This document shows, in pieces, positions 6,271-37,029 of a DNA stretch of 37,167 nt. The stretch comes from Draconibacterium orientale (GTDB lineage Bacteria; Bacteroidota; Bacteroidia; Bacteroidales; JAADGE01). The position numbers and the translations under genes are program-made. The first letter of the stretch is position 1, and each line of letters starts with the position of its first letter. The DNA lies in the NCBI GenBank assembly GCA_020718265.1, contig DYSM01000001.1, forward strand, positions 1-37,167, in the 5' to 3' direction. The notes under the pieces were generated by a model, which searched no databases, was not told the origin of the DNA, and was given only the letters and a program-made list of their open reading frames with translations.

Positions 6271-6298
6271 AACTGCTGCCGCAGTTTTTTTTTTTTTT
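6271..6298 (+). terminator. hairpin plus T14 tract (terminator-like)
   Basis: aactgc-tgcc-gcagtt stem-loop running straight into a run of 14 T (6285-6298). It lies inside the doubtful ORF 6053..6322. Confidence 0.5.
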
Positions 6299-7145: not shown

Positions 7146-7849
7146 AACAGTTCGCAAACAAATACAATTCTTTTCTGTCCGAAAGCGGCGTAAGTTATGC
7201 CTTGTTTTTCGTCATGGTTGAACTGATAGGCATCAATACCTTCTCATTGCGATTCGTTCTGCAATCGCAAAACGAATCGCTTACCAATTGGATGCCTGCA
7301 TTCATCGGCGCGTTGGCGTATAGCATAACTACTATTGTGGTGATGCAACGCCAAGGGCACGCGCAACTTAAACGCATCCTCCCTACCCTTGACGCGCTAC
7401 TTGTTTTGCTCGGCATGAATATCAATATTCTCGACCAAGCCGCCGACGGAACGCTTAACTATGTAGCTGTTATTTTGTCACTGTTATTTGCTGTATTTAC
7501 GGCGGTTATCACATATTCCCTCGGACAAATTAATAACGAAGCTCGCCCCGATATGGTTACGAAAACCGACTACGACCAAGTCGTGCGCAACTCCGCCGGA
7601 CTTGCTTTGCAGGTTACAACAAAGGTTGTAAAGTTGAAGGAAATGAATGTCGAAATAACAGATTTGAGAAGTCAGTTGTTTCTCACAAGGAAAGAACTCA
7701 GCGAAATGCAGCGCACACACAGCATGTATTACGACGGTTGGTTGCGACATAATAAGTCGCGCATTCTGAAAATGAAACCCGAAGCGCGAACCGCCGAGGA
7801 TAACGAAATCTTAGAAAAATTCAATCACTTACAAAATCAAGAATTATGA
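7142..7849 (+). CDS. hypothetical membrane protein with a C-terminal coiled coil
   Basis: 235 aa with about four hydrophobic helices in the N-terminal 130 aa, followed by a heptad-like charged segment. Confidence 0.55.
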   Translation: MKQFANKYNSFLSESGVSYALFFVMVELIGINTFSLRFVLQSQNESLTNWMPAFIGALAYSITTIVVMQRQGHAQLKRILPTLDALLVLLGMNINILDQAADGTLNYVAVILSLLFAVFTAVITYSLGQINNEARPDMVTKTDYDQVVRNSAGLALQVTTKVVKLKEMNVEITDLRSQLFLTRKELSEMQRTHSMYYDGWLRHNKSRILKMKPEARTAEDNEILEKFNHLQNQEL

Positions 7850-8118
7850 TTATTACTGAAGATACATATTTCGTAACTATCTCGAAATACCAAATGGAAT
7901 ACCACTGCCTTGTTCCGAATTCACATCATACTATTTTGCTGTTTTTATTCCAAAAAAAAAATTATGCAAAACTTATCTATAAATTTGTGAATGAATATGT
8001 GTATGATGACCAGGAAAGTCATTACAGAACATACGCGATTAAAACTTACGCATCTACAAAATTGGACTTTCAAAGAGCCGAACAAATTATCAATCGAAAA
8101 TTAAAGTTAGAATTATGA
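7846..8118 (+). CDS. hypothetical protein
   Basis: 90-aa ORF with ATGA overlaps at both ends. It contains an A10 run (7952-7961). Confidence 0.45.
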   Translation: MIITEDTYFVTISKYQMEYHCLVPNSHHTILLFLFQKKNYAKLIYKFVNEYVYDDQESHYRTYAIKTYASTKLDFQRAEQIINRKLKLEL

Positions 8119-8399: not shown

Positions 8400-8555
8400 A
8401 TGTTTGAAGCAATTTTCTTAATAGATATTATCGGTGCGTTGTATTTCATAGCGCGAATGATCGGCGCAAAAACAAAAACTCAAAAGGTTGCATTTCCAAC
8501 CTTAGTTGTGCTCTCAATTGTTTCGGCTGTTTTGGTAATCTCAATATTAATGTGA
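8400..8555 (+). CDS. unlisted 51-aa two-TM protein, holin candidate
   Basis: Hand translation from ATG 8400 gives MFEAIFLIDIIGALYFIARMIGAKTKTQKVAFPTLVVLSIVSAVLVISILM*. That is two hydrophobic helices separated by a basic loop. The TGA overlaps the next ATG (TGATG at 8553-8557). It is below the 60-aa cutoff of the ORF track. Confidence 0.4.
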   Translation: MFEAIFLIDIIGALYFIARMIGAKTKTQKVAFPTLVVLSIVSAVLVISILM

Positions 8556-8980
8556 TGAAAACATTCACAGCAGAAATTATTGTTCCGTTCAGAATAAAGA
8601 AACGCCCCACTCGTTGGGGCGCGTTCTGGGCGAACCGCTTACTGTTCGATTTCTACGGCGAAGGCGGAAAGGCTTGGCAAGGCGGACTGCTCATGGCTAT
8701 ACAACTCTTACTGATAGTTCCGATGTTGTTACTTGATTTCGGAATTTTGTTAGTTTTTGGTGCATGGAAGTTACTTTTCGGATTCAGCAAAAAGACAACA
8801 GAAGCAGGAATTGACGTAACAACAAGCACATTGAAAACTGCATTTGGATTCATTCTAAAATGGGTTATTGCAATTGGCGCAATTATTTTTCTATACACAA
8901 TAATATCAGACGGATTATGGAAAAAATACTCGGAAAAATTGTCATTCTACTTGGAACTGTTACAATCAGTTTCGTTTTGA
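8555..8980 (+). CDS. multi-pass membrane protein (lysis cassette, second holin/antiholin candidate)
   Basis: The track ORF starts at GTG 8552, with an ATG at 8555. Three hydrophobic segments are present (LLMAIQLLLIVPMLLLDFGILLVFGAW, FGFILKWVIAIGAIIFLYTII). Confidence 0.5.
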   Translation: MKTFTAEIIVPFRIKKRPTRWGAFWANRLLFDFYGEGGKAWQGGLLMAIQLLLIVPMLLLDFGILLVFGAWKLLFGFSKKTTEAGIDVTTSTLKTAFGFILKWVIAIGAIIFLYTIISDGLWKKYSEKLSFYLELLQSVSF

Positions 8981-9576
8981 TTCATTATGTGAATTTCAAA
9001 CTTACCTTGACAGGTTCCGAAAGTTACTTTTCAGAGAAAGTAAGACAGCTTGATATTATCAACGAACTCCGAATGCGTAGCTTATCAATTATCGACATGC
9101 GCGATATCACGAAACAAGGCACACACATGAAAACAACAATTTCACACATCGTCTTACATCACGATAATTATCCTTACGGTCAAGATAATTCGTGGGACAA
9201 TGTGGATGAGTATCACGAAGGCAAGGGCTGGGGCGGAATTGTGTATCACTATTTTGTCAGCAGGTCAGGCAAGGTATATCAAAACCACACCGACAGTGCT
9301 AACACTCCACACGCAGGAAGCCGAAAGTATAATGCCGTGTCCATTAGCGTATGTATGCAAGGCAATTTTGAAACAGACACGCTCCAAGGTGAACAGAAAC
9401 GCAGCGTAATCAAGCTGCTCTACCTCTTACGCCGACGATACCCCGATGCAATCTTAGTCGGACACCGCGAGGTAAGACCTGAGCCGACGGCTTGCCCGGG
9501 GAGGAACATTGACTTAATTAAGCTGAAAGAAGCAAGTTTTCAACCTCACATTAAATTACTGAATTATGAGCATTGA
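8917..9576 (+). CDS. N-acetylmuramoyl-L-alanine amidase endolysin (Amidase_2/PGRP, T7-lysozyme-like), possibly with an N-terminal signal anchor
   Basis: 'ISHIVLHHD', 'GWGGIVYHYFV', 'NTPHAG' and 'VGHREV..PTACPGRN' match the Zn ligands and core of Amidase_2. The start is uncertain. ATG 8917 adds a hydrophobic helix (ILGKIVILLGTVTISFVLI), whereas ATG 9073 would avoid the overlap with the previous gene. Confidence 0.85.
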   Translation: MEKILGKIVILLGTVTISFVLIHYVNFKLTLTGSESYFSEKVRQLDIINELRMRSLSIIDMRDITKQGTHMKTTISHIVLHHDNYPYGQDNSWDNVDEYHEGKGWGGIVYHYFVSRSGKVYQNHTDSANTPHAGSRKYNAVSISVCMQGNFETDTLQGEQKRSVIKLLYLLRRRYPDAILVGHREVRPEPTACPGRNIDLIKLKEASFQPHIKLLNYEH

Positions 9577-10820: not shown

Positions 10821-13800
10821 ATGGCAGATATACAAGGCAGAGTAGATTTGAAGGTGAACGGCGACGATGCCGCCGCCGAACTAAAACGCTTACAGAAGAA
10901 GACTTCGGAACTCCGTCAGGAGATTTTGAAAGTGCAAAAAGAACAGTTACTGAAAAAGAGTTCGATTGACGAAGCTTACAAGGCTCTGAAACTTGCACAA
11001 ACACGCGCATCGGATTTGCGCATCGAAATTGTGAAACTCTCACAAGCCGTTGTCATTGACGAAAAAGCATTGAAGCTCGCCAACGCCGAACTTGCCAAGG
11101 CTGATGCCGAAATAAAATCTATCAATAAGGAGTTACGTACCTTAGAGAAAAACCCGGCATTGAACGCACTCAATGCGGAACTCAAAGCAACGAACAACCA
11201 ACTCCGTGCCATTGATAACGCAACTTTCGAATACAGTAAAGTCCTTAAGAATCTATCAGGCGCAACCATTAAAGACTTGAACCGCGCACATGCACAACTC
11301 AGTAAGGAAATTCAAACCATAAACCGTAACACGGACGAATATCGCCAAAAGTCCAAACAACTTGCGCAAATATCTACAACTATCGGGCAAGTGCGCAACG
11401 AGATGCGCGGCGTTGCAAAAGAAACGCTGACATTCAAGGATAGACTCGGCAAGATGGCTGATAATTTCAACCGTTTCGGCGCAATGTCAATCGGCATTAT
11501 CGGTTCACTTACCGGATTAGTGGTCTCGGCACGCAAAGCGGTGGATGCGTTCAACGAGTTTGAATCTTCGCAAGATAATTTGCAGGCATTGACCGGACTT
11601 TCAGAAGAAAAGGTGAAAGGCTTAGGCGATGCCGCGATTGAAATGAGCACATCTGTGCAGGAAGGCGGCGTGCGCATAACGAAATCCGCCAAAGATATTG
11701 TGGATGCGTTCACGTCCGCAGGCTCGAAACGACCGGAACTGCTCGCAAACGCAGAGGCATTGAAAACCGTTACGAACGATGCACTTATCCTTGCCGAAGC
11801 CGCTAAGATGGAACTCGACCCGGCAATCGGCGCAGTTACCGCCGCCATGAATCAGTTCGGACTTGGCGCAGATGAAAGTCGCCGTATTATCAATGTGTTT
11901 GCGGCAGGCTCGAAGGCAGGCAGTGCGGAGGTGGACAGCCTTGGAGAATCGTTCAAGAACGTGGGAACGGTGGCATCGGAAAGCAACATGACTCTCGAAG
12001 AAACGGTTGCGGCATTGGAGGTTTTGGGTGACAAACAAATCTATTCGGAAGAAGCCGGAACGAAATTGCGTGGTGCATTATTGAAATTAAAACAAACCGG
12101 CGTGGGTTACGCATCAGGCACGTTCAACATGCGCGATGCTTTGTTAGAAGCGAACGCACAACTTGAAAAACAAGGCACGGAAGCGCAGAAAGATGCGCTG
12201 AAAATGAAATTGTTCGGTGCTGAAAATATTACGGTAGGTTCTATTTTGCTTGGCAACATCCTAAAATACGACGAACTGACAAAAGCCGTTACCGGCACGA
12301 ACACGGCAATTGAGCAAGCAGCAATTAACACAGATAATAACGCCGCCAAACTCGAACAGGCAAAAAACCGCGCCCAAGAAAATGCGATTGTGCTGGGCGA
12401 ACAGCTCGCCCCTGCCCTCACATTCAGTACGAATGCGTTTTCGTATTTGTTGAAAGTGTTGGTTACGATTATAAAAAATTGGGACACGTTTGCGAAGTAT
12501 TTGAAAATTGCTGTTGCCGGAATTGTAGCTTATACTGTCGTTACGAAAGGTGCGACAATTGCAACTTTTTTGCAAGAAAAAGCAACATTAGTCTTGAAAA
12601 AAGCCAACGACCTTCTTAGTATTTCAATGAAAAAAACGCCTTGGGGTTTGATAATAGCCGGAGTTGCTGCTGCAATTACGGCTTTTATATTATTCCGTGA
12701 AAAGGCTAAAGAAGCTGAAAAACCTCTGCTTAATCTTGCAAAAGCAGGTGATATATATTCTGAAAAAATGGCTGAGGTTGTCGGCGAAAGTGATGCTCTT
12801 TTTGAGATGCTGAAAACAACAGAAAAAGGCACGCAATCTTACGACAATGTATTGAAGGCTGTTAACGAAAAATATAAAACATATTTGCCTAATCTTCTTA
12901 CACAGCAGACTTCATTAGAAGATATTGAAAAAGCTCAAAAAGCAGTAAATGAGGCATTATTACAAAATATTGCGATTGAAAGTAAAAAAGAGGAATTTAT
13001 AAATCTAAACAAGGAATACTTAAGGTCACAACGTGAAATTTTTAAAATTTTCAATGAAACGATTAAACCATCTGTTATTGATAGACTTGATACGTTTAAT
13101 TTCGCTTGGTTTCAAGCTGCGGCAAATGCCGGCTTAACAGCCGATCAGATAAGCGCATCAGTTCAGTCTGCGACAGGATATAGTATTATTGATGATAATC
13201 TTCGGAATCTTGTTTCGGATACAAAACGTGCCGCACTTGAGTTTGAAAATGGGAAAAAAAGTATAGGAGAATTTTATTCTACGCTTATAACAGGAAGCGA
13301 AGAAGCGGCAAATTCAGGGAATGGGACAGGAGGCGGAACCGCAAACGCCCAAGCCAAAGCCGATGATTCTCGTATGCTTTTCGAGCTCATTCAACAATTA
13401 AACATCAATGCAATTGAGGACGAGCGCAAACGCGCTGCGGCTGAATTGGAAATCTGGTTCACGAAAGAGCAGGAGAAAATATTGATGGCGAAAGTATCGG
13501 AAGAGCAAAAGAATTATGCACTCTCGCAATTGGATGCCGCGTATACCGCCAAACGTATCGAGAATGAAAAGGCATATCAAGACGAATTACTGAAACGCTA
13601 CCAAGATATTGAGGCATTCGTAACCGAAGCGCAACGCGGCATCGTAACCGAACAGGAACGATTGAACGAAATTGAACTTGCGGCAATTGACGGAAAATAT
13701 CAAAAGCAAATTGATGCCGCAACGAAGTTCGCATCCGAAGATGTCGCCAGACGTGAGGAATATCTGCGCATTATTTCCGACCTTGAAACCGTGCGCGATG

Positions 13801-14828
13801 CCGAGAAAAAGGCGTATCTCGAAGCTAAGGAAAAAGAACATACAGAGATGATTCAATCCATTCGGGAGCAATACGGACTTATTAGCGATGCAGACAAATA
13901 TCAACAGCAGCTTGACCAACTGAAAGCATATAAGGATCAAGAATTACTGACAGAAGCGGAATACGAACAGGCATTGTTCATTCTGCGAACGGAACATCTG
14001 AAGCAATTGGATGCGCAAGCCCAAGCCGCGCACGATGAAGAAATGCAACGCCGCAGAGAGAACTTGTCGCAAATGTCGTCAGTTATCAGCGCAAGCGAAT
14101 CATTGACGAACGCCGCCAAAGAGCGTGAACTGCAACGTGTGGGCGATGATGAGGAGAAGAAAAAGCAAATCCAAAAGAAATATGCCGATATTGAATTTGC
14201 AATCACACTCGCGCAAATTGCTGCTACAGCCGCCAAAGCCTACATGGAAGCCGCCGCACTTGCATTGACTAATCCTATTGCTGGTGGTCTTGCGTATATT
14301 GCGCTCACTGCGCAAGCCGGCGCATCGACCTTAGCCGCTACCAATCAGCGCAATGCTGTAATGCAGCTCGCCGACGGAAAGTATGACGTAGTAGGTGAGG
14401 ATGACGGCAAACATTACGCCGCGCCGTTGGTTCCGACACTCAGCACCGGCATTGTGCGCAAGCCTACATTGGTAGCGGAAGAGCCGGAGTTCGTGGTGGA
14501 CAATCGCACCTTATATAATGTGAAAACGGACAGATACGGCATGACGGTAATGGATCATGCGCAGGCTATATCAAGGATGCGTAGTTTGCGTGTGCCTCAG
14601 CGCGCACGCGGGAAATACCAAACTGCAGGAACGAATGTTCCTGCAACGATGCATGCGGATAACTCCGAAATGATTGCCGAACTGCGTGCGATGCGCTCCG
14701 AACTCGGAAACATGCGTTCGGACTTACAAAATTTCAAGGGAAAACTGAAAGCGCAAATTGTCTATACGGATTTGGAGGATTACGAGGCGAAAATTAACAA
14801 GGTAAGAAACGATACTTCGGTGTTGTAA
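10821..14828 (+). CDS. tail tape measure protein
   Basis: 1335 aa, largely coiled coil. The core 'AAGSKAGSAEVDSLGESFKNVGTVASESNMTLEETVAALEVLGD...GTKLRGALLKL' matches the TP901-type tape-measure domain. Central TM-like helices are present. Confidence 0.92.
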   Translation: MADIQGRVDLKVNGDDAAAELKRLQKKTSELRQEILKVQKEQLLKKSSIDEAYKALKLAQTRASDLRIEIVKLSQAVVIDEKALKLANAELAKADAEIKSINKELRTLEKNPALNALNAELKATNNQLRAIDNATFEYSKVLKNLSGATIKDLNRAHAQLSKEIQTINRNTDEYRQKSKQLAQISTTIGQVRNEMRGVAKETLTFKDRLGKMADNFNRFGAMSIGIIGSLTGLVVSARKAVDAFNEFESSQDNLQALTGLSEEKVKGLGDAAIEMSTSVQEGGVRITKSAKDIVDAFTSAGSKRPELLANAEALKTVTNDALILAEAAKMELDPAIGAVTAAMNQFGLGADESRRIINVFAAGSKAGSAEVDSLGESFKNVGTVASESNMTLEETVAALEVLGDKQIYSEEAGTKLRGALLKLKQTGVGYASGTFNMRDALLEANAQLEKQGTEAQKDALKMKLFGAENITVGSILLGNILKYDELTKAVTGTNTAIEQAAINTDNNAAKLEQAKNRAQENAIVLGEQLAPALTFSTNAFSYLLKVLVTIIKNWDTFAKYLKIAVAGIVAYTVVTKGATIATFLQEKATLVLKKANDLLSISMKKTPWGLIIAGVAAAITAFILFREKAKEAEKPLLNLAKAGDIYSEKMAEVVGESDALFEMLKTTEKGTQSYDNVLKAVNEKYKTYLPNLLTQQTSLEDIEKAQKAVNEALLQNIAIESKKEEFINLNKEYLRSQREIFKIFNETIKPSVIDRLDTFNFAWFQAAANAGLTADQISASVQSATGYSIIDDNLRNLVSDTKRAALEFENGKKSIGEFYSTLITGSEEAANSGNGTGGGTANAQAKADDSRMLFELIQQLNINAIEDERKRAAAELEIWFTKEQEKILMAKVSEEQKNYALSQLDAAYTAKRIENEKAYQDELLKRYQDIEAFVTEAQRGIVTEQERLNEIELAAIDGKYQKQIDAATKFASEDVARREEYLRIISDLETVRDAEKKAYLEAKEKEHTEMIQSIREQYGLISDADKYQQQLDQLKAYKDQELLTEAEYEQALFILRTEHLKQLDAQAQAAHDEEMQRRRENLSQMSSVISASESLTNAAKERELQRVGDDEEKKKQIQKKYADIEFAITLAQIAATAAKAYMEAAALALTNPIAGGLAYIALTAQAGASTLAATNQRNAVMQLADGKYDVVGEDDGKHYAAPLVPTLSTGIVRKPTLVAEEPEFVVDNRTLYNVKTDRYGMTVMDHAQAISRMRSLRVPQRARGKYQTAGTNVPATMHADNSEMIAELRAMRSELGNMRSDLQNFKGKLKAQIVYTDLEDYEAKINKVRNDTSVL

Positions 14829-27560: not shown

Positions 27561-27821
27561 ATGGAAAAAAAAAAAATGAGAAACGTTGTGATTATTCCCG
27601 AAGAAAAAATCGATCATCCACAGCATTACGGCGGTGCTGATAATGTGTATGAAGCAATCAATGTTATTGAAGCTTGGCAATTGAGCTTTTGCCTCGGCAA
27701 TGTGCTGAAATACATTTCGCGTGCCGGAAAGAAGGGTCCCACTCTTGTAGACCTCCGAAAAGCGCAATGGTATTTGGTGCGGGAAATCAGACGCATAGAA
27801 AAGGATTCAATTAGCGCCTAA
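27561..27821 (+). CDS. DUF3310-family phage protein
   Basis: 'HYGGADNVYEAINVIEAWQLSFCLGNVLKYISRAGKKG...DLRKAQWYL' matches the DUF3310 pattern (HY.....e.i.vie......gn.iKYi.Rag.K....dl.KA..Yl). ATG 27561 is followed by an A12 run, so ATG 27577 is an alternative start. Confidence 0.7.
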   Translation: MEKKKMRNVVIIPEEKIDHPQHYGGADNVYEAINVIEAWQLSFCLGNVLKYISRAGKKGPTLVDLRKAQWYLVREIRRIEKDSISA

Positions 27822-29569: not shown

Positions 29570-30040
29570 ATGAGTATCTCCCAAAAAAAAAGAAACAGTT
29601 TTCAGCCAGCAATTAGAATTTACTATGCCGAACAAAAAAGAACAGACCCGGACATCGAACAACTGACCGATAACGGAAACGGAAACTTCTCAGCGGTATT
29701 TGCGCCTGCAAAAGATTGGAAGCAGATTTTTGCAACTATCGGTTCAATCTCAGTTTCTACAAAAGCAAGCCAAAGCGACGAAGGCAAAATTTATGAGCAC
29801 GAAATTACATTTTCTGCTCCGGGCGATGACATTGAAACGCTCTTAGAATTAGAATCGCTTCTTAATATACCTCTTATAATAAGGTGTGATTTTGCAGAAG
29901 TCGTTCCGAAATTATTCGGAGACCTGATGAATTTCTGCTTTCTTGAATTTGATAAAACTAACGAAGGTTATATCTCCGGAACTGATTTAATTTTGAAGTT
30001 CGCATCAGAGCACGATGCACTCACCCTTATAACCGATTAG
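29570..30040 (+). CDS. hypothetical protein
   Basis: The track ORF starts at 29477, inside the preceding gene. The in-frame ATG at 29570 (MSISQKKRNS...) follows the stop at 29523 and a degenerate gtcctctgc box at 29534. Confidence 0.5.
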   Translation: MSISQKKRNSFQPAIRIYYAEQKRTDPDIEQLTDNGNGNFSAVFAPAKDWKQIFATIGSISVSTKASQSDEGKIYEHEITFSAPGDDIETLLELESLLNIPLIIRCDFAEVVPKLFGDLMNFCFLEFDKTNEGYISGTDLILKFASEHDALTLITD

Positions 30041-30116: not shown

Positions 30117-31337
30117 ATGAAAATCGGAATACCGACAGCTCTATCAAAAGGAGTTTGGGCAATATCACCTGAGGTTGCATTTGTTTATGGAAGTTTCGTA
30201 TCAAGTTTGCTTGCTGGTGAAAATGTCCAAATGGACGTGATAGCCGAATCTCCTTATACAACCGTTGCTTCTGATTCTTCCGGAACGCAAAAGCGCGTTC
30301 GGGTAATTCCTATCAAAGGTCCGCTCACTAAAGAAACTCAGATGTGCGGCCCTATCGGCATGGCTGAAATTGGAAACCAAATCATGCGTGCTGATTCAAG
30401 TTTCGATATTGATGCGATTCTTCTGGACATTGATACGCCCGGCGGAACTGTGGACGGCACAATTGCCTTGGCTGAAGTAATCCGAAATACAAAAAAACCG
30501 ATTGTCGCATTCGTAAACGGTATGGCGGCATCTGCAGGCATGTGGATTGCTTCCGCCGCCGACAAAATTATTGCTTCTACGAATTTCGATTCTGTCGGAA
30601 GTATCGGCGTAATGACTTCGTTCTTGGACATGCAACCGATGTGGGAAGCTGCCGGCGTGAAATTCCATACCTTACTTGCTGACCAAAGCTCTGATAAAAA
30701 TAAAATGTTCGACGAAATTCGCGCAGGCAAATATACGGACTATATCAAGGAGCGACTTAATCCGTTGGCGGACGCATTTCGCACATTCATCCGCGAAAAC
30801 CGTCCAAATATCACAGATGACATGCTTTCAGGAAAAGTCTATCACGCAAAAGATGTGATAGGCTCATTGGTTGATTCTATCGGCTCATTCGATGCCGCTA
30901 TTGAATCTACTATTTCTATCTTTCCGAAATCTTTTTCTAATCAAAATAATCAAGCCATGAGTAACTTCCAATTCCAAACCGAAGAGGATGCACGCAATTG
31001 GTTTCAAAAAATGTTTGGTCTGAAACCTCAAAAAGAGGTCGCAGCTGAGCAATTGGAACAATTGAAAGCAGACCGATTCATTCAAGATTCTGAAATCGCC
31101 CATCTGACTAAGCAATTAGCAGAGGCAGAAGCCGACAAAACGGCAATGCAACAAGAAATCTACATGCTCGAGCAAAACATCGCCGCGTTGAAAAGCCAAC
31201 CCGGTGCGCAAACTGCCGTAGCTACCAAAGCCACAGACGGTTATGTTGCTTCACCTACAGTAATTGATTTGCCGGAAGGTTCTTTCGCAGACCAATTCGC
31301 AGCGTTCAAGACTGTCTTAGATAACGCACGGAAATAA
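30117..31337 (+). CDS. S49 (SppA/ClpP-fold) prohead protease fused to a coiled-coil scaffold-like C-terminal domain
   Basis: 'ILLDIDTPGGTVDGTIALAEVIRNTKKPIVAFVNGMAASAGMWIASAADKIIA...VGSIGV' matches the S49 peptidase core. The C-terminal 120 aa are heptad-rich (EQLEQLKADRF...EADKTAMQQEIYMLEQNIAALK). It sits immediately upstream of the capsid gene. Confidence 0.85.
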   Translation: MKIGIPTALSKGVWAISPEVAFVYGSFVSSLLAGENVQMDVIAESPYTTVASDSSGTQKRVRVIPIKGPLTKETQMCGPIGMAEIGNQIMRADSSFDIDAILLDIDTPGGTVDGTIALAEVIRNTKKPIVAFVNGMAASAGMWIASAADKIIASTNFDSVGSIGVMTSFLDMQPMWEAAGVKFHTLLADQSSDKNKMFDEIRAGKYTDYIKERLNPLADAFRTFIRENRPNITDDMLSGKVYHAKDVIGSLVDSIGSFDAAIESTISIFPKSFSNQNNQAMSNFQFQTEEDARNWFQKMFGLKPQKEVAAEQLEQLKADRFIQDSEIAHLTKQLAEAEADKTAMQQEIYMLEQNIAALKSQPGAQTAVATKATDGYVASPTVIDLPEGSFADQFAAFKTVLDNARK

Positions 31338-31355
31338 CTCGAAAATTATACCATT

Positions 31356-32390
31356 ATGGCAGACATAATCACCGTAAACGGCTTATCTGAGGAAGCCAAA
31401 AAGTATCAAACCCAACTCAGAATGTTGCCTTACTACATCTTAGGTGAAGAACTTGCTAAACAAGGGATCTCTCTGATGCAAGTGCGCGGCATTGATGTAA
31501 TGATTCAGGCGCAACGTCGCGGCGACATGCTGCGCCCGTATGTTGCAGGTTTTATCGACCAAAATGATGATGCAATGCGTTTTCGTGAGGTAACTCTCGA
31601 AACGAAAACTGCATACATTTCTATGCAAGACAACATCACGAACTATGTTACGAAAAAGATGTTGAACCAACCGCAAGGCGGAACAGGTATTAACCAAACG
31701 AAAAAACATCCGTTCGAGGATCTCATAACTGCGAATGTTGTGAAAACCGCATCGGAAGATGCGTTGGACGCATTGTTCACGGGTGTGTATAATACAGGCG
31801 CTGTAACGCCGAGTGCGCAAGACTGCTTCGACGGTTTTGAAACAAAAATTGCTGACATGGTAACTGCCGGAGATATTTCCGCAGGAAACAAGAACCTCGT
31901 AACCACAGGTGCGATTGTTGCGCCGGTGGACGAAACGGACTTCACTGCGATTGAGCAAGTTGTAGCTTTCATCCGAAGCGCAAGCAAATTGTTGCGCCGC
32001 TCAGGTATGCTTTCATTGCCGCTTGGTATCTATCAGTTCATGATGGATGCGCTCGAAAACAAATACTCGGCTCGCGCTTGGGATTTGAACGGCGTTGAAA
32101 ATTACATCAACCAAAAATCCGCATCGAATATTCGTTTGGTTACGTCTAACCACATGGGCATAGGCGACCGATTGATTCTGACCACACCCGGCAACTTGCA
32201 TTTCGGTATGGACACCATGAGCGATCTTGACTTCGTTCAAGTGCGTAACGTTAAAACTGACCCAAACACCGTTCAATTCTGGTTACAAGCCGGATTCGGA
32301 ACGCGAATATTCTCAATTCATCCGAAGGAATTCCAAGTGAACGACGGTTCATTAACTGCAGTCGCACTTTCCGGAGATTATACCGTGTAG
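31356..32390 (+). CDS. putative major capsid protein
   Basis: 344 aa, directly after the protease/scaffold gene and followed by a strong hairpin terminator. The size and position are typical. No database confirmation is possible here. Confidence 0.65.
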   Translation: MADIITVNGLSEEAKKYQTQLRMLPYYILGEELAKQGISLMQVRGIDVMIQAQRRGDMLRPYVAGFIDQNDDAMRFREVTLETKTAYISMQDNITNYVTKKMLNQPQGGTGINQTKKHPFEDLITANVVKTASEDALDALFTGVYNTGAVTPSAQDCFDGFETKIADMVTAGDISAGNKNLVTTGAIVAPVDETDFTAIEQVVAFIRSASKLLRRSGMLSLPLGIYQFMMDALENKYSARAWDLNGVENYINQKSASNIRLVTSNHMGIGDRLILTTPGNLHFGMDTMSDLDFVQVRNVKTDPNTVQFWLQAGFGTRIFSIHPKEFQVNDGSLTAVALSGDYTV

Positions 32391-32393
32391 CAT

Positions 32394-32421
32394 AGGCGAG
32401 CCGAAAGGCTCTCCTTTTTTC
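32394..32421 (+). terminator. rho-independent terminator after the capsid gene
   Basis: aggcgagcc - gaaa - ggctctcct stem with a GNRA loop and one mismatch, followed by T6. Confidence 0.75.
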
Positions 32422-32443: not shown

Positions 32444-33388
32444 ATGAAAAAATTATCAGAATTCCACAGAAATATCTTAGCCATTGCCATGATTCTTATG
32501 CTTTTATGTTTGGCTGTCATCGACACAATGTTTAATACGTCGATATTTTCTGTATCAATGTATACCGTGACACTCGTGCCTTTGGTATCGCTCGCGAAAA
32601 CTCCAGCTTGTAACATGGCAGGGGTTGCAACCATTGTGTATGTTATTCCGTTGGATGACATTGCTGCATTTCCAAGTATAGGCGCACTTGTTACCCCTGC
32701 CGACCTTGTGAAATATGTCGGCGATTTCTCGCTGAATGCGAATAAGTATTGGTACACGCTGTATAGCACGAAGGAAATGGGCGAACTCATTGCCGAAACC
32801 GACGGACCTACTGACGGAAAATTTTTTAGAGGCACTGTTACTGCTTTCCACCCGCGCACATCGGAAGATGCGGTAGGACTTGCAACGACCTTGAAAGATA
32901 GAGACGTAGTCGTTATCGTGAAAGAAGTTAGCTCAGGAAAATTAAGAGTTATCGGAACTTCCGATATACCTGCAACTGTTTCGCCGAGCGAAAACTCAGG
33001 AAAAGCGTATTCGGATGAAAAAGGTATTACCTTCACGTTTGAAGCTGCTTCCTGCAAAGCTCCAATGTTCTATTACGGTTCTGTTGTAACTGAAAATGAA
33101 GTTGTATATGCGCCTGTTCGTTTGGCTGTTGATGCTACGACCTTAGATTATAGTCTTGGTTCACGCGTTGTAGTCGGAGCAAACACTGCAAGCAAGATAT
33201 TAGCTTCTGTTACGAACATGTCAGAAGGCGATGTTCTGCGAATTGAATTTGATGCACTTTCGGCTGAATCGTTGGCATTCTCCGGAGCATTCGGTGCAAC
33301 TGCTACAATCGACGCGGCTGGCGAATGGTTCGAGATAACCAAATTCGATACTACTACCTACATCATCACCGGAGGAGATTTTGCGTAG
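32444..33388 (+). CDS. abundant virion protein candidate (major tail or decoration protein)
   Basis: 314-aa ORF bracketed by two strong terminators, an arrangement typical of highly expressed structural genes. The first 57 aa are hydrophobic and odd, and ATG 32615 (MAGVATIVYVIPLDD...) is an alternative start. The function is inferred from context only. Confidence 0.45.
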   Translation: MKKLSEFHRNILAIAMILMLLCLAVIDTMFNTSIFSVSMYTVTLVPLVSLAKTPACNMAGVATIVYVIPLDDIAAFPSIGALVTPADLVKYVGDFSLNANKYWYTLYSTKEMGELIAETDGPTDGKFFRGTVTAFHPRTSEDAVGLATTLKDRDVVVIVKEVSSGKLRVIGTSDIPATVSPSENSGKAYSDEKGITFTFEAASCKAPMFYYGSVVTENEVVYAPVRLAVDATTLDYSLGSRVVVGANTASKILASVTNMSEGDVLRIEFDALSAESLAFSGAFGATATIDAAGEWFEITKFDTTTYIITGGDFA

Positions 33389-33404: not shown

Positions 33405-33433
33405 AGGAGGGACTTCGGTCTCTCCTATTTTTC
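33405..33433 (+). terminator. rho-independent terminator with a UUCG tetraloop
   Basis: aggagggac - ttcg - gtctctcct (one G-U pair) followed by atttttct. Confidence 0.7.
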
Positions 33434-33455: not shown

Positions 33456-33770
33456 ATGGCACAAAAACCGAAATATAAACAGTTGTTAGATACCTTCGAG
33501 AATGAAGGCAAATCGCATCCGAGTTACGATAAGAAACTCAAATTCTACAAGAATGCCGGCGTAGCTGACCGCACAGAAGAAGGAATGCACTATCGTATGC
33601 TTGTCAATGACATAGCCTATGTTGAACGCACATCTAAAAAAAAATCTTCCGAAAAGCCGAAAGCCATGTTGAACTTGAAAGCAGAGAAATCAGCTCAGAA
33701 AGTACAAGAGTTTCCGACACCGGAAACGGAAATATCGGAATCGGAAAGCGAGAAAGAAATCGTCTCCTAA
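33456..33770 (+). CDS. hypothetical protein, zero-frame product of a candidate frameshift gene
   Basis: 104-aa ATG ORF. It contains an A9 run (33636-33644) read as KKK in the zero frame. Confidence 0.55.
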   Translation: MAQKPKYKQLLDTFENEGKSHPSYDKKLKFYKNAGVADRTEEGMHYRMLVNDIAYVERTSKKKSSEKPKAMLNLKAEKSAQKVQEFPTPETEISESESEKEIVS

Positions 33771-34009
33771 GTTCTGAGTGGTCGAATCTGACATACAAGG
33801 AAAAACAAACATTTCTGAACAACGAAAGCCTTTTTCTCGTTGGGAAGAAGGCTTTTCTTGATAATACAAAACTGTATCGGGAGTTGAAAGCGTATCACGC
33901 GAAATTGAAACTCATAGCCGACGGCACTGAAAAACAGCAACTTGCAACACTTATAGTTGAAACAAACGAAACCATTCAATCAAATTGGAAATTAATTGAC
34001 ACACAATAA
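33638..34009 (+). CDS. -1 frame extension without a start codon (candidate trans-frame C-terminus reached by slippage at A9)
   Basis: I translated this frame codon by codon. It is open for 124 codons from the TAA at 33635-33637 to the TAA at 34007-34009. It has no ATG or GTG, and its first TTG is at 33884. The distal part (SEWSNLTYKEKQTFLNNESLFLVGKKAFLDNTKLYRELKAYHAKLKLIADGTEKQQLATLIVETNETIQSNWKLIDTQ) looks protein-like. Confidence 0.45.
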   Translation, partial: KKIFRKAESHVELESREISSESTRVSDTGNGNIGIGKRERNRLLSSEWSNLTYKEKQTFLNNESLFLVGKKAFLDNTKLYRELKAYHAKLKLIADGTEKQQLATLIVETNETIQSNWKLIDTQ

Positions 34010-34096
34010 TATATGGCAGTCTCATTCACAAAAATCAGCAACGGTAACGTTATTGCAAATATAGTGCCTTGAATTCTTATCCGCACATACCACAGA

Positions 34097-34576: not shown

Positions 34577-34830
34577 TTGAAGAAATTAAGAAATATGCAG
34601 GTTTATTTTTCAAGCCGCGCGAAATTGCATATCTGATTGATGTAGATGTAGATAACTTCATTGATAAGATTAACGATGACAGCACCGACGAACATCGCGC
34701 CTACTTTATTGGTATATTATCCGCAGAAGTGAAATTACGAACTGAATTAGTGGAAATGGCTGAATCCGGAAGCCCAAAAGCTCAGGAAGAATTAGCTCGA
34801 ATTATTGTAAAAACAAAGGCGAACTTATGA
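34573..34830 (+). CDS. small hypothetical protein, possibly an HTH/packaging accessory
   Basis: 85 aa with ATGA overlaps at both ends. It lies upstream of the terminase genes. 'PREIAYLIDVDVDNF' is HTH-like. Confidence 0.4.
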   Translation: MIEEIKKYAGLFFKPREIAYLIDVDVDNFIDKINDDSTDEHRAYFIGILSAEVKLRTELVEMAESGSPKAQEELARIIVKTKANL

Positions 34831-35402
34831 AAATAGATCAAGTCATAGCCAAAATTCTTGATTCTTACAAGGATGAATCTGTTGTGCTCAACACGGCTGA
34901 AACTGAATATCGGAAGCGCATTGAGTTTATTATGGAAGAGAAATTGAAAAACATTGCTCTTTCAGATTTTGATCTTTATAAGCGTCTGAAAAAAAACGGT
35001 TTTCGAGGCGGATTCCCGGAGGCAGTACGCTACATTTCTGTTGCCGAACGGATTATTGCATTCGAAAAAGATCCAAACGGAGATCCGCATAGGACGTGGG
35101 ACAGATATTTCATTTCTGAAGTTACGAAAATGGCTATTGCAAAAGCAATTGTGAACGGAAATGAGTATAACATGGCGTATGCAGTTAACATCTACGGTAA
35201 GCATAAGCTTACCGACAAAGAAGACACTGTTCGGTTGCCTTACGACCAGATTATTCCTTTTATGCCTGAAATTACTTCGGATGTCAGCGTATTGGGAATT
35301 GAACCTATAAAGAACTTAGAAGCTCGGAAAGCTGAGCTTATGAAAAAATACGGAATTATTCAAGATGCTGAAATATTGAAACATGGACGCACCGAAGTGT
35401 AA
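34827..35402 (+). CDS. putative terminase small subunit (by position)
   Basis: 191-aa ORF immediately upstream of, and overlapping, terL. No diagnostic motif was recognised. Confidence 0.35.
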   Translation: MKIDQVIAKILDSYKDESVVLNTAETEYRKRIEFIMEEKLKNIALSDFDLYKRLKKNGFRGGFPEAVRYISVAERIIAFEKDPNGDPHRTWDRYFISEVTKMAIAKAIVNGNEYNMAYAVNIYGKHKLTDKEDTVRLPYDQIIPFMPEITSDVSVLGIEPIKNLEARKAELMKKYGIIQDAEILKHGRTEV

Positions 35403-37029
35403 GAAGTTCTATATGAACAAGGCGCAACGGTATGTGCATACTATTGCAGCTCGAAATAATTATATCATTGCCTCTCGGCGGTTCGGAAAGTCCGAAGGCA
35501 TTATCATGCCGCGATTATTACAGAATGTGCAGTCCATGCCGCGCTCATCGGGCGGGCTTATCGGCTCAACCTATAAGCAAGTTCTCACGCGAACTTTGCC
35601 CGCTACACTATTTGCATTGGAACGCCTTGGCTATCGCGAAGGGATTCATTATTTTGTAGGGCGAAAAGCCCCTAAGACATCCGGATTTGCCGATCCTTTT
35701 ATAATGCCGCGTTCTTGGGATTATTTCATTCATTGGTATAATGGTTCGGTTAATCCGATTATCTCTCAAGATATTCCGTATTCGTCCAACTCTCTGACAA
35801 TGGATTACTTAATCGGAGACGAGGCGAAAACACTGAACCGCGATAAGCTAATCAATGAAACACTTCCTGCTGTTTCCGGCTTGCCGCAATTCAAGAATAA
35901 TCCTTGGCATACAGGCGTGATGTTCGTTACAGACATGCCCACGAACAAACGCGGATTATGGATATTGAAGGAAGAGCAGAACATGGACAAAGAACTGCTG
36001 ACTGTGTTAGTAGGCATGATGCACAAGTATTTCCGCATGAAACTCGCAAATACAGGTTATGATACCAAGCCTATATTAGCATTGCGAAATCAGATAGACT
36101 TATTCCGAAAAGAACTTACATTGTATCAAGTATTTAATATCCTTGACAACCTTGAAATTGTCGGCGAGCGTTATGTTGCCGACATGCACCGAAATTTAAC
36201 CCCGTTCGTGTTCAGAACAGGGCTATTATCACAGCAAATCAAAACCACAGAAGGCGCATTTTACGGCGCGTTGGATGAAAAAAAACATTACTATGATGCT
36301 GTGAATATTTCAAAACTGAACAAATTCCGCTCGGATTACGGCGATATTGATTGGAAAGTTGCTACAAATCATTCATTCTCATGCGAAGATGATACCGACA
36401 TCAATCACAGCTTACCGTTAGTCATTGCTTCTGATACCAATATCAATATCAACTGGTTAGTTGTTGGACAAGCGGACTACCAAGAGAATAGGCTTAACAC
36501 ATTGAAATCATTCTTTGTCAAGTCTCCTGCGATGTTGCCGGAAGTCGTTAAGAAATTCACTGAATATTATTCGAGCCTCCCAAATAAGTCAGTCATATTC
36601 TATTATGACCACACATTCTTACAAGGTCGCTCAGGTAATTCAACAGAGACATTCTACCAAACTATATCGAACGAGCTTACAAAAGTCGGATGGATTGTAA
36701 CAGAACAATACATTGGTCAAGCCCCGAAGCACGATGATAAGCACAAGGACATTGATGATGCTCTCAAGGGCAGACGCGGATTGTTACCTATGTTTAATCA
36801 TTCTAACAATGAAGACTTGCTTACGGGCATGGAGAACACAGGGACACGCATATCGCCAAACGGTTGGGGCAAAGACAAATCAGGAGAGAAGACAGAAGAT
36901 TCTTCTGAAGATCCAGTTGAACATCGCACCGACGGCGGCGATGCTTGGGATACTTTGTTCATTGGTTGTAACAATTTCAGAGTGTCGTCGGTACATTCGC
37001 ATTTGTCGTTAAGCAATATGTTTCAATAA
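35383..37029 (+). CDS. terL: terminase large subunit
   Basis: Walker A 'ASRRFGKSEG', Walker B 'DYLIGDEAK', and a C-terminal nuclease-sized domain. 548 aa. ATG 35413 (MNKAQRYV...) is an alternative start that avoids the overlap. Confidence 0.88.
   Translation: MDAPKCKKFYMNKAQRYVHTIAARNNYIIASRRFGKSEGIIMPRLLQNVQSMPRSSGGLIGSTYKQVLTRTLPATLFALERLGYREGIHYFVGRKAPKTSGFADPFIMPRSWDYFIHWYNGSVNPIISQDIPYSSNSLTMDYLIGDEAKTLNRDKLINETLPAVSGLPQFKNNPWHTGVMFVTDMPTNKRGLWILKEEQNMDKELLTVLVGMMHKYFRMKLANTGYDTKPILALRNQIDLFRKELTLYQVFNILDNLEIVGERYVADMHRNLTPFVFRTGLLSQQIKTTEGAFYGALDEKKHYYDAVNISKLNKFRSDYGDIDWKVATNHSFSCEDDTDINHSLPLVIASDTNININWLVVGQADYQENRLNTLKSFFVKSPAMLPEVVKKFTEYYSSLPNKSVIFYYDHTFLQGRSGNSTETFYQTISNELTKVGWIVTEQYIGQAPKHDDKHKDIDDALKGRRGLLPMFNHSNNEDLLTGMENTGTRISPNGWGKDKSGEKTEDSSEDPVEHRTDGGDAWDTLFIGCNNFRVSSVHSHLSLSNMFQ

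Follow-up and report, generated by a model that had tools for sequence, protein, structure and literature searches.

A conserved run of nine or more A at the frame change of a two-frame gene in the capsid/packaging module of tailed phages: a candidate for programmed transcriptional slippage

The stretch of DNA analyzed here (the window; contig DYSM01000001.1, positions 1 to 37,167, 37,167 nucleotides in all) is a tailed-phage genome, and its positions 33456 to 34009 hold what appears to be a single gene divided between two reading frames that overlap at a run of nine A. The zero-frame open reading frame (ORF), located at 33456..33770 on the + strand, starts with ATG and encodes a predicted short product of 104 amino acids (aa), according to the ORF list and the sequence; the identical 104-aa protein is called on two assemblies. 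Its aa 1–63 make up an N-terminal helical domain, which is followed by a 41-codon tail rich in K, E, S, and P. The A9 run, which is the proposed slip site (33636..33644, + strand), is read in frame 0 as TCT AAA AAA AAA TCT. In the -1 frame, stops are found at 33608, 33623, and 33635, the last being a TAA that overlaps the A9 run, and beyond it 123 sense codons stay open until the TAA at 34007-34009. This frame contains neither ATG nor GTG, and its first TTG (33884) falls in the middle of a conserved domain, so that the C-terminal domain of the window cannot initiate independently. All of these features of the two frames had been reported in a preliminary description of this DNA and were confirmed in the sequence. 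Its further statement that no other ORF covers 33771-34096 is borne out for the + strand; on the - strand there are two TTG/GTG ORFs of 62–70 aa. Stop-free segments of at least 100 codons on the + strand tile the window almost exactly as genes, and the segment 33638..34006 occupies an otherwise empty gap.

The part of the -1 frame that follows the run encodes, by translation, a linker predicted to be disordered, KKIFRKAESHVELESREISSESTRVSDTGNGNIGIGKRERNR (33638..33763, + strand), which overlaps the zero-frame tail, and then a conserved C-terminal helical domain without its own start codon, LLSSEWSNLTYKEKQTFLNNESLFLVGKKAFLDNTKLYRELKAYHAKLKLIADGTEKQQLATLIVETNETIQSNWKLIDTQ (33764..34009, + strand), which matches the hidden Markov model profile of the domain with an E-value of 1.6e-28. 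By themselves, the first ~40 codons that are open in both frames are weak evidence, because the purine-rich linker is poor in T. The predicted products of the window are a protein of 104 aa (N-domain plus tail) and a fusion of 184 aa (...ERTSKKK-IFRKAE...), whose junction is K-rich and is predicted to give a peptide containing RTSKKKIFRKAE.

When the hypothetical 184-aa fusion served as query in an exhaustive phmmer search, 28 database proteins besides the window's own ORF were returned. Eighteen of them are more distant homologues, single chains of 181–418 aa which contain both the N-domain and the C-domain, and many of their alignments span query residues ~20–45 to ~182 and thereby cross the junction at 63/64. 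The other 10 matches (47–85 aa) consist of the C-domain alone. Matches to the C-domain had E-values from 1.3e-13 upward. The N-domain of the family is helical and has the motif L..WL..P.R.Y..G..LY...FF...P...MH..ML..RL..I.RI, the linker between the domains is K/E/P-rich, and the C-domain (~80 aa) is characterized by NKLL...W..L...K..F.N....F..KK...........LHAKLK.............NW..ID, in whose alignment F and D are invariant and KK is near-invariant. Long contiguous homologues usually end in a C-terminal coiled-coil extension, which the split members lack. AlphaFold, run on the fused product with the family alignment, gave a model with a mean predicted local distance difference test (pLDDT) score of 88, comprising a four-helix N-domain at residues 7–65 (helices 7–20, 24–32, 36–39, and 44–65, pLDDT 90–96), a disordered linker at 66–97, and a helical C-domain at 98–183 (pLDDT 95–98); for residues 61–100 pLDDT is 51–70. 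These comparisons indicate that the -1 frame encodes a real, conserved domain of ~80 aa which is predicted to be helical.

Neither blastn with the region nor tblastn with the fused protein detected any match among 50,697 phage records. A word-indexed protein search recovered the window's own ORF alone, and with the domain profile it gave two matches. Searches for related loci with the capsid protein, with alignment A4 on viral contigs, and in a first metagenome scan found nothing, and two scans of bacterial genomes yielded no match and hence neither a prophage copy nor a clue to the host. Near the frame change, the window's KKKIFRK resembles the contiguous GDKKIFK of homologue P0006, encoded by locus L014 (related loci are numbered with L, their proteins with P). 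In L014 (JGI 3300063009, positions 150-800 of a 923-bp contig), an in-frame A7 is present at the homologous junction (GDKKIFK vs. SKKKIFRK in the window). The N-domain of this copy is broken ~20 codons upstream of the junction by a frame change that involves no homopolymer, probably as a result of assembly error or decay.

To examine the frame change across the family, the DNA of all retrievable short C-domain matches was analyzed together with loci from pattern scans. Twelve distinct split loci, including the window, were identified; they are diverged and come from different samples. Each has the C-domain in a different frame from an upstream ORF of 90–115 aa, which in L017 and L019 is incomplete because the contig ends, and in 12 of 12 the overlap of the two frames (41–265 nt) contains a run of A9 (10 loci), A10 (1), or A11 (1). 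In addition to the window, the A9 run is read as GGT AAA AAA AAA TTA in L002, GCT AAA AAA AAA GGG in L008, GAC AAA AAA AAA GAG in L009, GCA AAA AAA AAG in L005 and L017, GCA AAA AAA AAT in L006, TCA AAA AAA AAG in L011 and L013, and CAA AAA AAA ACA in L018, whereas L019 has A10 (GAA AAA AAA AAT); the C-domain is in the -1 frame in all of these loci, including the window. In L004, which has A11 (GAA AAA AAA AAA CAG TAA), it is in the +1 frame. Codon phases 0, 1, and 2 of the run all occur. The TAA at which the shifted frame opens is, in three loci (the window, L002, and L008), made up of the nucleotide preceding the run together with the first two A's. The run is located just past the N-domain in most loci but at the distal end of the linker in L004 and L009, and its flanks are not alignable. 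Conservation of the shifted frame extends ~10 residues upstream beyond the C-domain, with IP[KR][ST]KA[VM]TNKLL in L011, L013, and P0006. In seven split loci, the N-terminal ORFs match a profile built from contiguous homologues alone, with E-values of 1e-9 to 1e-12.

In L017 (Logan SRR26786784, 30-276), the zero frame runs for 82 more codons past the A9 with a coiled-coil-like sequence (…LMDELDALEEKNEKLQLQNKALSEANEQLNKQLEQ…), and the -1 frame is open as well. Both frames of this overlap may be truly coding.

The loci examined contain 8 runs of A9 or more in 129 kb, or 6.2e-5 per nt, which corresponds to a chance of 0.3–1.6% per overlap; these per-locus chances cannot simply be multiplied because the loci are related. 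In six of six contiguous relatives whose DNA was read (L007, L014 at the junction, L015, L016, L020, and L021), the longest linker run is A8 or shorter, so that runs of A9 or longer occur in 12/12 split loci and 0/6 contiguous linkers. In L020, for instance, QQKKKQK is encoded by CAG AAG AAA AAA CAG. Two of the contiguous relatives, L007 and L021, fall within the clade of the split loci, their large terminases (TerL) being 53–59% identical to that of the window, compared with 57–63% for the split loci. As contiguous and split members are found in one clade, a switch between the two states occurred within it. The preliminary description had named the two-frame architecture in homologous phages and the conservation of the downstream frame as points to compare: the architecture is kept, with A9–A11 at the junction of every split locus, and the downstream frame is conserved, with distant homologues encoding both halves as one protein. 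The gene has a two-frame anatomy, both of its halves are homologous to single-chain relatives, and a run of at least nine A stands at the junction. On these sequence comparisons, 33456..34009 is best explained as one gene written in two frames.

It could be argued that no recoding takes place, and that the break reflects homopolymer sequencing or assembly error, a decaying pseudogene, or two genes, the C-domain having its own start or being translated by reinitiation. Homopolymers are error-prone, the second frame break of L014 demonstrates that broken copies occur in such contigs, 3 of the 12 loci have an ATG near the start of the C-domain (P0004, P0011, and P0026), and gene callers annotate the C-domain as a separate protein of 72–85 aa. 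However, 12 diverged loci from different projects and assemblers are interrupted exactly at a run of at least nine A, and miscalling of a single in-frame length could not account for out-of-frame runs of 9, 10, and 11 alike. In particular, a true length of A10 that had been miscalled, a possibility raised in the preliminary description, was rejected since L019 is out of frame at A10 and L004 at A11, so no single length fits. An independent Logan assembly (L001) reproduces the window region without differences, L002 and L003 do not differ over the 3.8 kb that they share and have the same run length, and L009/L010 and L011/L012, pairs from different samples with 1–2 substitutions within the gene in each, have kept the run length. 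Gene callers mostly start the C-domain at Leu codons within the conserved LLxxxW motif, by which the domain is truncated. Decay is further disfavored because both halves stay conserved. We consider this group of explanations highly improbable.

The same data bear on a DNA-level explanation, in which the tract would be hypermutable, changes of run length during phage replication would switch the full-length protein on and off (phase variation), and the assemblies would show the OFF allele. DNA polymerases, too, slip on long A/T runs (PMC1088944, PMC3711429), and lengths of 9, 10, and 11 exist among the relatives. On the other hand, all 12 split loci are out of frame, no relative has a long in-frame run at the junction, contiguous relatives do not exceed A8, and near-identical strains from different samples have identical run lengths, with no coexistence of in-frame and out-of-frame lengths seen in strain pairs. 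A consensus that is always OFF points to selection for the OFF genotype, which would be sensible only with rescue at the level of RNA or the ribosome. Phase variation thus appears very unlikely to us.

A reasonably probable explanation, and the one we favor, is programmed slippage at the A run with RNA polymerase as the main route. Standard decoding would produce the 104-aa protein, consisting of the N-terminal helical domain and a non-conserved tail whose 41 codons would be read solely in the absence of slippage. In a fraction of transcripts, the host RNA polymerase would slip on the A9 and add one non-templated A (or add 4, or leave out 2), and the slipped mRNAs would be translated by ordinary means into the -1 frame, giving 184 aa in which the N-domain is followed by the disordered linker and then by the conserved helical domain at the C-terminus. 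From a single promoter, N-only and N-C protein would in this way be made in a constant ratio set by the A tract, and ribosomes shifting by -1 on A_AAA_AAA may contribute further fusion protein. A recoding site with products of ~104 and ~184 aa that have a 63-aa N-terminus in common had been proposed in the preliminary description, and the comparison of relatives supports it.

Several lines of evidence are consistent with this mechanism. An A run of ~8–9 nt or more exactly at the frame change, which is expected for transcriptional slippage (PMC1088944, PMC3711429), was found, and the arrangement is indifferent to codon phase and mRNA structure and occurs with either frame (+1 in L004). Slippage is reported to set in usually at nine nt, a length at which many bacteria show selection against it and which insertion sequence (IS) elements exploit (PMC1088944), and programmed transcriptional realignment is reported to take place on An with n > 7 (PMC3711429). 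Runs of nine A or T yield mRNAs with up to six extra nt, with a bias toward insertion (PMC5009743); since insertion is needed in 11 of the 12 split loci, they match this bias. The share of the extended product is 25–30% for Shigella spa13 (PMC5009743), and the corresponding figure for Thermus thermophilus dnaX is ~50% (PMC5009743, PMC1088944). We infer that slippage occurs, that RNA polymerase rather than the ribosome is its main agent, and that both products are functional.

Other observations weigh against slippage by RNA polymerase. The window's N-terminal ORF matches the N-domain profile of the homologues weakly, although specifically, in a targeted test (15.6 bits over aa 25–63), and that of L002 does not match it at all; judged by sequence, the former is a divergent member of the family. 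The zero-frame tails (rich in K, E, P, T, and S) are no less similar to the linkers of contiguous homologues than are the R/G-rich shifted linkers, and the linkers are purine-rich and T-poor, so that the long open overlaps are in part compositional. A second A9, which is in frame, lies within the C-domain at the conserved FLEKK(K) motif of L011 (3089-3097) and L004 (1475-1483), where slippage would truncate the fused product. Runs of A9–A12 are also tolerated elsewhere in these phages, suggesting that the host polymerase slips little on A9 or that some truncation is tolerated. We found no documentation in the literature of how Bacteroidota RNA polymerase behaves on A9. L004 is the lone case in the opposite direction and is known from one 2.2-kb metagenomic contig. 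Finally, all 11 loci that use the -1 frame have a phased A_AAA_AAN heptamer (A_AAA_AAA, A_AAA_AAG, or A_AAA_AAT), and in L005, L011, L013, and L017 it is the classic A_AAA_AAG, which fits the ribosome equally well.

Such heptamers are the basis of the principal competing explanation, programmed -1 ribosomal frameshifting at A_AAA_AAA/A_AAA_AAG on a faithful A9 mRNA, which would give the same 184-aa fusion, as happens in lambda G/GT and in Escherichia coli dnaX. Among bacterial shift sites, poly-A heptamers are the most frequent (PMC3711429). Nevertheless, no conserved hairpin or pseudoknot was found downstream: in nine loci, folds of the 70 nt that follow the run had minimum free energies (MFE) of 0 to -18 kcal/mol and z-scores of +1.3 to -2.8, and several loci are essentially unstructured there (MFE 0 in L011; z +0.45 in the window, and +0.9 for a 121-nt fold). 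Rfam gave no match for the window region either, and a stimulatory RNA structure was rejected as nothing of the kind appeared in the folds or in Rfam. The 30-nt upstream sequences have no common GGAGG-like Shine-Dalgarno element. What we count in favor of the polymerase is that the run is kept at nine or more in all split loci although A7 is enough for a heptamer, that its phase varies among all three codon positions, that it lies at two or more linker positions, and that L004, with its A11 and its C-domain in the +1 frame, departs from a consistent -1 shift: its frames would be joined by -1 or +2 nt in the mRNA or by ribosomes shifting +1 or -2, which a -1 ribosomal shift cannot provide. Ribosomal frameshifting as the main route is therefore regarded as rather unlikely, though clearly less so than the alternatives discussed above.

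Two further candidate elements were discarded. Sequences near the zero-frame stops share no slippery motif across loci, and an alternative shift site there was rejected on this ground. An imperfect inverted repeat, GAAAGCCTT … AAGGCTTTTC (window 33824-33857), is present within the coding sequence of the C-domain and also in the closest C-domain relative (L002, 2937-2980), but not in L004 or L005. It was rejected as a terminator or stimulator, being ~190 nt downstream of the run and inside the conserved coding motif ESLFL..KKAF.

Returning to slippage by RNA polymerase, the observations can be joined into a broader and more tentative picture, to which we give slightly less than an even chance: in a clade of uncultured phages, probably infecting Bacteroidota, slippage on at least nine A would set the ratio between the N-only and N-C forms of a head/packaging-module protein, the split state would have evolved or moved more than once from contiguous ancestors, and in some members, such as L017, the overlap may be dual-coding. 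Repeated evolution or movement of the split state is suggested by the occurrence of slip sites at two linker positions, one of them with the opposite frame.

We also examined the genomic context of the two-frame gene. On its 5' side are an S49 head protease gene (30117..31337; PHROG 53, E-value 2e-50), a major capsid gene (31356..32390, + strand, 344 aa), whose counterpart in Microcystis phage Mea-Yong924-1 is annotated as major capsid protein, and a neighbor conserved in tblastn synteny over 12 related loci (32444..33388, + strand, 314 aa). The 314-aa protein has no family match in Pfam, PHROGs, or NCBIfam. Its hydrophobic N-terminus (32444-32570, the first ~25–45 codons) is not conserved, the homologues from the 12 loci aligning from residue ~25–54, and the true start may be located later or the N-terminus may be a lineage-specific signal or membrane segment. 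A strong terminator-like GC hairpin with a T-tail follows the capsid gene (32398-32411), and a terminator scan detected another strong hairpin of this type, with a T-run, after the 314-aa gene (33405..33426, + strand), 30 nt before the ATG of the two-frame gene; the two hairpins suggest that the capsid and 314-aa genes are expressed highly and terminated separately. On the 3' side, a 159-aa protein with a weak endonuclease PHROG match is followed by proteins of 85 and 191 aa, the latter conserved in tblastn synteny (34827..35402, + strand), and by the large terminase (35383..37029, + strand), identified by tblastn to annotated phage terminases. The order capsid gene, typically 314-aa homologue, two-frame gene, ~190–210 aa protein, and TerL is kept in relatives. 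Given these capsid and terminase neighbors, the gene belongs to the capsid/packaging module and not to the tail module. The tape measure gene (10821..14828; PHROG 28, E-value 6e-42) is ~19 kb away, in agreement with the earlier remark that the two genes do not adjoin.

The terminase of the window is 28–38% identical to those of Porphyromonas, Flavobacterium, Cellulophaga, and Polaribacter phages and 34% identical to that of Mea-Yong924-1. Judging from these terminase relatives, the host is probably a member of the Bacteroidota. Contiguous distant homologues of the two-frame gene occupy the syntenic place in L015 (MZ447863.1, 19873-33453), which is Microcystis phage Mea-Yong924-1, and in L016 (MT835542.1), a human-fecal phage contig; both share the protease/capsid/terminase module with Bacteroidota phages. 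QXN68079.1 is a 226-aa homologue annotated as hypothetical. The assignment of Mea-Yong924-1 to a Microcystis host looks odd in view of its terminase relatives.

Additional long homopolymers were observed in the window, including A runs at 7952-7961 (A10), 27565-27576 (A12), and 29583-29591 (A9) and T runs at 6285 (T14), 10712 (T13), and 1518 (T12). The A10 is in frame within the ORF 7846..8118, where the two alternative frames stop in ~12 codons; the A12 is directly 5' of the ATG of a DUF3310-like gene; and the A9 forms codons 5–7 of the ORF 29570..30040. If the host polymerase slips on A9, the other long A runs of the window would give heterogeneous mRNAs too. Separately, a 142-aa ORF starting with GTG (8552-8980) overlaps the amidase/endolysin gene (8860-9576; PHROG 822) by 120 nt in a different frame.

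With regard to function, searches of Pfam, PHROGs, and NCBIfam gave no match for either frame or for the long homologues, a profile search against PDB sequences returned nothing, and Foldseek searches of the full model and the N-domain against PDB and BFVD found no hit better than an E-value of 0.16. We would guess that the product has an accessory role in assembling heads or packaging DNA, as its fixed place between the capsid and terminase genes is suggestive of this. A literature search found no description of the gene family or of a conserved slippage site in the capsid/packaging module of phages. If the broader picture outlined above is true, this would be, as far as could be found, the first conserved case, supported by comparison, of programmed transcriptional slippage in a morphogenesis module of tailed phages. 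To our knowledge, recoding in tailed phages is textbook material solely for the tail chaperone and a few capsid genes; the present family would be a second, unrelated tailed-phage gene family with a conserved slip site, found by comparison alone. Transcriptional slippage by a Bacteroidota-type RNA polymerase has received hardly any attention and could be tested with this gene, and the presence of contiguous and split versions in one clade allows one to ask what benefit an excess of the N-domain alone might bring. Annotation is affected as well, since gene callers report an ORF of ~100 aa and a start-truncated ORF of 72–85 aa, or miss the second half, as in the window.

Several known systems can be compared with this gene. 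The -1 frameshift of the lambda G/GT-type tail assembly chaperone, reportedly treated by Xu, Hendrix and Duda in 2004, is the one to which the preliminary description had likened the locus. This frameshift is described in PMC5009743. In both cases, a tailed phage would make a protein of ~100 aa and a C-terminally extended fusion from two overlapping frames with a slippery site, and such overlapping frames are present in the window and 11 relatives. The analogy fails, however, because the neighbors are capsid and terminase genes and there is no similarity of sequence or fold, and assignment to this class was rejected as the locus does not lie between the major tail and tape measure genes in the window or its relatives. 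Moreover, the shift here would be mid-gene, at A9 in most loci, whereas the G/GT heptamer is near the 3' end, and unsplit contiguous homologues are common for the present gene, unlike for G/GT.

A closer parallel is slippage on A/T runs that fuses two ORFs, as in the OrfA/OrfAB transposases of IS elements in Deinococcus and other organisms (Baranov 2005, PMC1088944) and in the Shigella genes spa13, mxiE, spa33, and mxiA (reviewed in PMC5009743). These systems also have about nine A's at the overlap of two frames, standard decoding giving a short protein and slipped mRNA a fusion with the same N-terminus; the run is conserved among split-ORF homologues and RNA structure is not required. They differ in that the present gene encodes a two-domain helical protein in a phage capsid/terminase module, in which slippage is putative and the host probably belongs to the Bacteroidota, and in that its slip site is found at no fewer than two linker positions among relatives. 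In dnaX, the tau/gamma products depend on A9 slippage in T. thermophilus, and a Chlorobi-type dnaX has two ORFs and A10 (PMC3711429, PMC1088944). There too, an A9–A10 tract sets the ratio of long to short forms with a common N-terminus, and the long form of the two-ORF dnaX likewise needs a slip. On the other hand, unslipped mRNA gives the long form in T. thermophilus dnaX and would give the short form here, there is no homology, and the present gene belongs to a phage.

The mechanism class, poly-A slippage that fuses ORFs, is thus already known from IS transposases, Shigella type III secretion genes, and two-ORF dnaX. Among phages, the nearest precedent found is the methyltransferase gene of Campylobacter phage CPt10, which is frameshifted in a poly-A tract and for which the authors suggested rescue by transcriptional slippage (PMC2853527). 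Both are phage genes interrupted at a poly-A tract. The CPt10 case, however, is one gene in one genome without comparative support, whereas the interrupted state described here is conserved in 12 diverged loci.

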